From Thermoplasmatota archaeon (GTDB taxonomy: Archaea; Thermoplasmatota; Penumbrarchaeia; Penumbrarchaeales; Penumbrarchaeaceae), in NCBI GenBank assembly GCA_029762535.1, contig JARVGK010000002.1, positions 1 to 64,000 on the forward strand: 64,000 bases of DNA, given 5' to 3'. The notes beneath the pieces were generated by a model. The model was given only the letters and a program-made list of their open reading frames with translations. It had not been told where the DNA came from and made no database searches. A program made the position numbers and the translations under genes. Positions 40,776 through 41,712 of the stretch are shown piece after piece. How positions within the stretch are numbered: position 1 is the stretch's first letter; each line of letters begins with the position of its first letter.

Positions 40776-41712
40776 AAAAGAGGGAGGTGCATGCTTCGCA
40801 TGCAGATTCCCGAGGATCGTCTCAGCTGCCGCTTCGCACAGCAGGCCGATCCATCTCGGGTTTCTAAGACCCCCCCAGCCGCCTGCGCTGGCCTCCACCG
40901 CAGACCCCTCCGGCCTGCTCGGCGGCTCTAATTCCTTATCCGACATTTTCAGAACCTCGAATTTCTACAAAGGTCTATTGTTCGGTTTTCTTTCCATTAC
41001 CGTATAGGAAAACCGAATCATAAACCTTCGCATCCAGCAAAGCTGGATATACATTCCAGGTCCATCAATCCGACACTTGACATCACCTGACGTGCGATAA
41101 AAACAAAAGTCAGGTGATGAAAAGATGAAAAAGAAAAGAATAGAACCGTTGAGAATAAGAAGCGATTCCTTCAAACACTGGATCGTCAAATCCATTCTGC
41201 TCTTTGAACTCGAGCGAATGGGTCATAGACTCGAAGTAGAGTTGTATATCCCAGGGATCGGATACTGTGACGTTGTTGATCTCACTGTCGGGATCCAGTA
41301 CGAGATCGACGGGAACTGCTCCCCAAAGTACAGAAATGAGAAAGCAAAAAAGTATCTTCGACCTGGGATCCGGGACGTGATCGTGATCCCCATTCATAAG
41401 CTTCCGAAAGACATCAACGAGATCCGATCCTACGTTGCTCAATACCTCGTGTCGGATTGATCGATAATGCTTTATTCGGTTCTTTCTCGCCCCCTTGTAT
41501 CCTCGATGCGAATTCACAGGCTTCACTTCATGATTGTACACCGCTCACCCTACCCTATTCGCTTTCAGTTGCAGGACTCTTCGCATCTCGTCACACTCCC
41601 CCAAACCCCCGCATTACATTCGCAGGCTCATTACATTGACCACGTTACACTTTCCCATCTTCCTGAAGTACGTAGTCAGTCGATGAGCACGGGAGGGAGA
41701 AACGGATACTAG
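40776..41712 (-). mobile_element. Structured element copy carrying an antisense nuclease ORF
   Basis: Module B 40776-40930, hairpins 40970-41120, nuclease, module A 41476-41712. Confidence 0.7.
41125..41460 (+). CDS. Small PD-(D/E)XK/Vsr-like nuclease, element-encoded
   Basis: Paralog of 37128-37454; enclosed by 13-bp inverted repeat 41064-41076 / 41449-41461. Confidence 0.7.
   Translation: MKKKRIEPLRIRSDSFKHWIVKSILLFELERMGHRLEVELYIPGIGYCDVVDLTVGIQYEIDGNCSPKYRNEKAKKYLRPGIRDVIVIPIHKLPKDINEIRSYVAQYLVSD

Follow-up and report, generated by a model that had tools for sequence, protein, structure and literature searches.

Archaeal polymorphic toxin-like loci shuffle their variable tips by a mechanism that has been stated to be unknown, with no integrase in sight (PMC8416519), and bacterial orphan cassettes recombine with no dedicated nuclease described (PMC3482391). 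Among small nucleases, CoiA cuts junctions between single- and double-stranded DNA and resolves D-loops by means of an aspartate in beta2 and a glutamate in beta3 (PMC13663708). Hairpins that bury the ribosome-binding site are typical of phage homing endonuclease genes, including free-standing ones (PMC2988022, PMC2677866). The same device is used by intron-encoded and free-standing phage endonucleases and by ordinary T4 genes (PMC2988022), so that it signals a restrained gene and not an intron. Here we describe a small nuclease gene that combines such a hairpin with a position at the borders of polymorphic cassettes in uncultured Thermoplasmatota from sediment. It is not an intron-encoded homing enzyme, and it may help to swap cassettes; our literature searches found no description of such a nuclease or cassette-border system. 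The window, the whole 64,000-nucleotide stretch that was analysed, contains the following features:

36160-37032, unstranded: duplicated A2 hairpin (36160-36238 and 36954-37032) on both sides of a gene for a nucleotidyltransferase and its small partner ORF
37069-37454, plus strand: second copy, with inverted-repeat (IR) arm, Shine-Dalgarno (SD) hairpin (37086-37122) and 108-aa nuclease gene (37128-37454)
37472-37709, minus strand: module B of the second copy
37717-38244, minus strand: small AT-rich partner (immunity-like) gene coupled to the cassette at 38241-40727
38241-40727, minus strand: orphan cassette, a TSP3-repeat trunk fragment from the fixed junction at 40727, then a variable tip
40789-40803, minus strand: A0, a perfect hairpin with a GAA triloop on that strand
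40878-40929, minus strand: A1, a conserved GC-rich hairpin module
40969-41029, unstranded: A2, a long hairpin with BRE/TATA-like words in both arms
41064-41076, plus strand: 5' arm of the IR
41081-41119, plus strand: SD-burying 11-bp hairpin (arms 41081-41091 and 41109-41119; SD 41112-41118)
41125-41460, plus strand: gene for a 111-aa predicted minimal PD-(D/E)XK (CoiA/Vsr-like) nuclease, antisense to the cassette genes
41449-41461, plus strand: 3' arm of the IR, overlapping the last codons and the stop
41478-41705, minus strand: module B, a covarying structured repeat of ~230 nt with no Rfam family
41904-44087, minus strand: orphan cassette (junction 44087) with small partner gene
44165-44693, minus strand: nuclease-less copy, with A0, A1, an unrelated 147-nt segment and module B
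45494-48250, minus strand: lead TSP3-repeat (trunk) gene, which has lost its 5' end or had it displaced and which carries hairpin inserts, in frame, around the junction

The ORF at 41 kb is a real gene under purifying selection (mean pS 0.80 versus pN 0.21 over 13 clade I copies) and encodes 111 residues, against 108 at 37 kb. Its structure model (pLDDT 86.6) is a restriction-endonuclease core in which a helix (16-31), three strands (36-42, 46-52 and 57-62), a second helix (67-77) and a last strand (84-89) follow the alpha-beta-beta-beta-alpha-beta order of the PD-(D/E)XK superfamily. The superfamily motif, an aspartate in beta2, an acidic residue in beta3 and a lysine in or near it, is represented by D49, E60 and, as a candidate, K73. 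The putative catalytic residues are E39, D49, E60, D62 and K73, with H18 and K22 also conserved; across 71 relatives H18, K22, E39, D49, D52 and E60 are nearly invariant (D49 in 71/71, E60 in 70/71, E39 in 69/71), and K73, kept in 60/71, is possibly a migrated motif lysine, judging from conservation. The best structural matches are RAP, PvuRts1I/AbaSI, NGO0050 and VRR-NUC, whose Z-scores of 6.7-7.5 fall in the common-fold range and establish the fold class and not the family; the homing endonuclease I-Bth0305I scores Z 5.8, Vsr-like/PD-(D/E)XK domains head the structural matches, and among named Atlas clusters those of CoiA_nuc come closest (TM 0.63-0.67). Structure prediction, fold matches and conserved acidic residues all agree with the original prediction of a minimal PD-(D/E)XK/Vsr-like nuclease, and by modelled fold and motif we place the protein in this superfamily, presumably as an active enzyme.

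Family assignment is a different matter. Sequence searches of Pfam, PHROGs and the PDB with the 111-aa query returned no family. The CoiA profile (PF06054) did not match the query and matched 2 of the 71 relatives weakly (best E 0.0035), and we rejected CoiA membership on its cut-off. The catalytic histidine that follows the beta3 acid in Vsr-like EDxHD enzymes is not kept: positions 63-65 are variable, with His in at most 5 of 71 relatives. An EDxHD homing endonuclease was rejected on this ground and because the gene lies in no intron, split intein or fractured conserved gene; its neighbours are the ends of partner genes, module B and orphan fragments. The protein is predicted to form a homodimer through helix 1 (score 0.69 against 0.00 for the best control, with contacts agreeing by at least 88% and pLDDT at least 76 across runs). 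Of 30 solved pairs, 20 reach the mark used, and of 23 single chains, one does. Since the protein carries no DNA-recognition domain, we infer a small dimer that would act on DNA shape and not on a long site, as CoiA does.

Expression of the gene appears to be held back. The motif GGTGA lies 7 nt 5' of the ATG at 41125, inside a stem whose counterpart at 37 kb pairs 37086-37095 with 37113-37122, both stems being 10-11 bp long. A predicted stem covers an SD-like motif ahead of nearly every nuclease copy with an intact leader, and its sequence differs between clades with compensatory changes; the hairpin is altered or missing at L004/L010 and L067 (G and L labels denote genomes and loci). The original prediction that the SD lies in the 3' arm of a hairpin in both window copies is therefore upheld and now extends, through these compensatory changes, to the wider family.

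The inverted repeat said to enclose the ORF, with the stop codon in its 3' arm, is exact: 41064-41076 is the reverse complement of 41449-41461 at all 13 positions, and the TGA stop occupies 41458-41460. By a rough estimate, a leader of 100 nt and a tail of 30 nt would match this well by chance with a probability of 4e-5, and none of 300 shuffles reached it; exact matching and covariation replaced a leader-tail duplex-energy test, which is not discriminating because windows within the ORF score equally. The 37-kb copy does share the arrangement, IR and SD hairpin included, but its arms (37069-37080 and 37443-37454) match at 11 of 12 positions, a mismatch that had gone unmentioned. Among 18 clade I loci tested, seven carry the IR (W41, W37, L005, L065, L068, L069 and, weakly, L015); it was found neither in the other 11 nor in clade II. 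The carriers are scattered over the clade I tree, which forces at least two changes. Its 5' arm tracks the penultimate codon, whether Ser, Ala or Val, and has thus undergone compensatory change. W37 has the leader of L068 and the 3' end of W41, so its IR mismatch fits gene conversion. On the mRNA strand the stem mismatches comprise three C-A and no G-U, and on the antisense strand they become G-U, a weak sign, in line with what had been proposed, that the repeat may fold on the element (antisense) strand. No precise loop-out between the arms appeared among the joints listed for four DNA runs, whose contigs drop rare forms.

The copy at 44 kb lacks the ORF, as had been noted, but the two IR arms, the SD hairpin and the A2 hairpin are missing as well, and the unrelated 147-nt segment is found there. 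This copy is therefore not simply the element with its loop emptied. A deletion between 10-bp direct repeats at 44159-44168 and 44704-44713 would produce an open fusion of a small membrane ORF with the cassette; no such in-frame fusion was seen at the other copies examined.

Module B, called module A in other notes by the author of the original prediction, covaries: in an alignment fitted to the structure, both partners vary in 18 of its 25 predicted pairs, none of 500 shuffles matches this, and slid controls collapse. It retains U-G pairs on the minus strand that hardly vary, and the only family in which it was found is the one to which the window belongs. By the author's tally, 23 of 28 clade I loci have a B module no more than ~2 kb away, directly 3' in 16; it stands 3' of the nuclease in clade I and 5' in clade II. 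Within the family, whose genomes are kin and not independent, all 13 nuclease-positive genomes carry B, four have B only and seven have neither. B and cassettes persist without the nuclease in the 44-kb copy, in G000:C10 and in genomes G001, G007, G015 and G018, and the nuclease-bearing genomes G055 and G035 have other structured modules in place of B. The predicted co-occurrence of nuclease homologs with the modules holds insofar as most homologs lie beside the element or cassette borders, but it is not strict.

Several further observations concern these modules. The genomes G055 (L051) and G035 (L052/L053), which belong to different families and both lack module B, share an end motif of ~26 nt fused to unrelated cassette types, and a long A2-like hairpin is common to both. 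In the window, A2 may act as a promoter, to judge by its BRE/TATA-like words, and it is duplicated round the nucleotidyltransferase gene and small ORF, which may form an MNT/HEPN-type pair, as if A2 were a recombination point. An HDV-like ribozyme was considered for A1 and rejected by eye, the partner of the crossing helix being missing in L014/L018 and no catalytic C being in place. By eye, L066 carries an apparent group II intron (~1380-2255, with an RT-like ORF and a D5/D6-like end) inside module B, and a transposase-like gene (L056, 8609-10432) and an RloB/ATPase-like two-gene pair (L060, 2220-4126) lie between B and the nuclease. At L098 (G000:C10), L002 and L058, B sits at the edge of housekeeping genes versus toxin-antitoxin (TA)/cassette islands.

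What kind of locus do these modules punctuate? Read on the minus strand, the order is lead TSP3-repeat gene, partners, B, A1, A0, orphan cassette and partner, followed by B, the antisense nuclease, A2, A1, A0, the next orphan cassette and onward, where a cassette is an orphan C-terminal fragment plus a small partner gene. Constant trunk, variable tip, coupled partner gene and orphan cassettes together make up a polymorphic toxin architecture; the two tips scanned gave no Pfam toxin domain. The nuclease gene lies antisense at the borders of such arrays in four unrelated trunk families, and this border position is its constant feature. The next gene is convergent with it in 19 of 20 clade II loci, near-identical clade II proteins adjoin unrelated trunk families, and the tandem arrays of G055 and G035 have one nuclease gene per cassette, with three cassette-nuclease units in G055. 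In each of the four families the orphan fragments start at a fixed base, and the DNA on the element side varies. At 17 of 19 junctions, from related loci (the window's 40727 and 44087 and those of L065, L066, L071 and L051-L053 included), the cassette frame stays open for at least 50 codons back into the structured module, whereas the other two frames usually close within ~20 codons; the module probably makes it possible to translate the fragment together with the partner coupled to it. Spacers at cassette junctions of the TSP3 family are often Asn/Asp-rich. For related strains, contig depths add up to high values across modules, nuclease and trunk but fall close to zero across the tips, a pattern consistent with shared borders and strain-specific tips.

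The lead gene carries hairpin-rich in-frame inserts (47457-48016, minus strand) within 20 nt of the junction, where related strains have none, or a few bases. At this site the trunks of L014 and L062 carry hairpin inserts of a different kind, the one in L062 containing an in-frame TAG, and bulge-helix-bulge splicing of the second lead-gene insert was rejected on inspection for want of a matching central helix. GC-rich, GGATCC-rich palindromic or tandem repeats lie between island genes (48330-48950, 31224-31394, 50670-50860 and 52030-52260), one of them replacing the 5' end of the lead gene. A ~180-nt, att-like duplication of the 3' end of a flavin-reductase gene (28700-28880 and 30066-30250) flanks a 306-aa gene without a Pfam match.

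The nuclease was found in 17 of 61 relative genomes and 15 of 301 phylum genomes searched. In the Thermoplasmatota it is patchy, often multi-copy and often frameshifted, and it falls into two main clades, I and II, with two clade II copies on other contigs of the window's own genome. The named genomes with close homologs are Thermoplasmatota metagenome-assembled genomes, and the best public sequence sources for the element are mud and sediment metagenomes; no RNA data set appeared among the sources listed. Remote relatives occur in viral and Aenigmarchaeota clusters, one of them (L132) among ordinary genes without a visible hairpin; viral contigs gave no close relative. Copies L067, L070 and G028 have no element nearby.

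We propose that the ORF supplies the enzyme for a module that marks cassette borders in the polymorphic surface/toxin-like arrays of these archaea. Incoming DNA, comprising module, trunk fragment, new tip and partner gene, would pair with the resident trunk, and the nuclease would nick the strand-invasion intermediate or the folded border module; the nick would favour a crossover that puts the new tip in place while the old one stays behind as an orphan, with joining by host recombination. The SD hairpin, and in some loci the stem closing 5' to 3' end, would keep the nuclease scarce. The closing stem may form on the antisense strand too, where it would place B beside A2. That the nuclease nicks branched or folded DNA and so promotes tip exchange is our preferred reading, at even odds of being right. 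Counted against it are the persistence of B and cassettes without the nuclease gene, the nuclease copies without an element, the remote relatives in viruses and Aenigmarchaeota, the structural Z-scores typical of a common fold and the bacterial orphan cassettes that recombine with no dedicated nuclease described (PMC3482391); the fixed junctions could also stem from one capture per family. A bolder form is doubtful: a dedicated cassette-swapping machine, free of integrase, transposase and reverse transcriptase (RT), in which a nuclease of ~110 residues is directed by folded single-stranded border modules to cut base-precise trunk junctions, exchanging tips between archaeal strains in several unrelated protein families. 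We found no RT in G000 (93% complete), G020 or G055 and no Y1 transposase in G000, G003, G020 or G055, and rejected IS200/IS605 or REP/RAYT elements on the latter result. The nearest tyrosine recombinase in G000 is ~53 kb from the array and unlinked, none stands beside the arrays examined in G003, G020, G055 and G035, and an integron was rejected for lack of a linked integrase at the arrays of all five genomes.

Other roles for the nuclease have to be weighed against tip exchange. It could be an addiction toxin, type I TA-like, silenced by the SD hairpin, the 5'-3' fold-back and antisense cassette transcripts, and stabilising a repeat-rich array against deletion. Pairing of leader with stop recalls the self-closing hok and aapA mRNAs, the islands are full of TA pairs, and cassette genes almost always converge on the nuclease gene; yet not all clade I loci have the IR, the mismatches in it point to the antisense strand (three C-A and no G-U on the mRNA strand), frameshifted copies are common and a small antitoxin RNA was not identified, so we consider this unlikely. 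We find it quite unlikely, too, that the protein is a free-standing homing-type endonuclease that cuts at or near the trunk junction in element-less alleles and spreads with its neighbours by gene conversion, although SD-burying hairpins typify phage homing endonuclease genes (PMC2988022, PMC2677866) and the distribution is patchy and decaying. The lead-gene inserts, at most 20 nt from the junction and absent from related strains, would then be resistance alleles. Against it, the protein has 111 residues and no DNA-binding extension, the histidine of the Vsr-like homing family is not conserved, and near-identical clade II proteins stand beside unrelated trunk families, which a long sequence target explains poorly.

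Readings in which the structured modules themselves take the lead fare less well. In an RNA-guided or ribonucleoprotein nuclease, B and A would make up an RNA of the minus strand to which the protein binds and which steers its cutting, the antisense ORF being looped out by the IR; this is the original prediction at its strongest, minus the intron. The strong covariation and near-invariant minus-strand U-G pairs of B speak for this, as do the IR mismatches, which also favour the minus strand; but B switches sides of the gene and is absent from the nuclease-bearing G055 and G035, no variable guide is tied to cassette sequence, and GAA triloops suit single-stranded DNA, which together make it improbable. 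The original prediction had likened the locus to group I introns, whose peripheral loops can house an antisense homing endonuclease gene, an analogy that is not supported. A group I or II intron would account for an IR that encloses the ORF and for the open fusion frame left by a deletion between the 10-bp direct repeats at 44 kb. However, Rfam gave nothing relevant at E ≤5 (window 29-50 kb) or E ≤3 (16 loci), the IR is missing from 11 of the 18 loci, B can flank the gene on either side, nothing of the stem is left in the ORF-less copy, no 3' terminal base is conserved ahead of the cassette junction, and the upstream gene at L065 stops before B. A group I intron was rejected because its catalytic core is unmatched, the flanks rejoin in frame only at 44 kb and the junction base varies; a group II intron or alternative 3' exon system, which would need D5/D6 directly before each cassette, was rejected because Rfam gave no match, the spacer varies and no RT was found in the three genomes named above. 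We regard an intron as highly improbable.

Returning to the tip-exchange reading, how does the locus compare with known systems? With CoiA (PF06054) and YraN the nuclease shares the fold, acids in beta2 and beta3 and an atypical motif without the canonical lysine, and with YraN its small size (PMC13663708). It differs from CoiA in having neither a zinc finger nor a C-terminal extension and in scoring below the Pfam threshold, and from both in being patchy, multi-copy and tied to cassette borders, with no partner helicase identified; CoiA and YraN were purified as monomers (PMC13663708), whereas our protein is a predicted dimer. I-Bth0305I and free-standing phage endonucleases resemble it in their related fold (Z 5.8), 5' RBS hairpin and mobile-element distribution (PMC2677866, PMC2988022). 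By contrast, Vsr-like homing enzymes have a conserved histidine and an N-terminal DNA-binding part, which the nuclease lacks, and its gene lies outside any intron, intein or fractured essential gene. Integrons (attC) likewise have repeated folded modules between cassettes and TA pairs, and one B copy bears an apparent group II intron, but here there is no linked integrase, and B is ~230 nt long and multi-branched, with partial copies that break at many positions. In layout the locus resembles polymorphic toxin arrays (PMC3482391) and archaeal VARTIG loci (PMC8416519), both with constant trunk, variable tip, partner gene, orphan fragments, turnover between strains and no integrase. What sets it apart is that the borders here carry conserved structured modules and a nuclease gene, the junctions are base-precise with the frame open through the module, and the tips are only putative toxins. 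Since an enzyme and structured signals that are candidates for the task are found here together with junctions precise to the base, the question of how tips are shuffled becomes testable with one small protein and short DNA substrates; and if cutting were steered by folded nucleic acid, the nuclease would be among the smallest steerable nucleases known.
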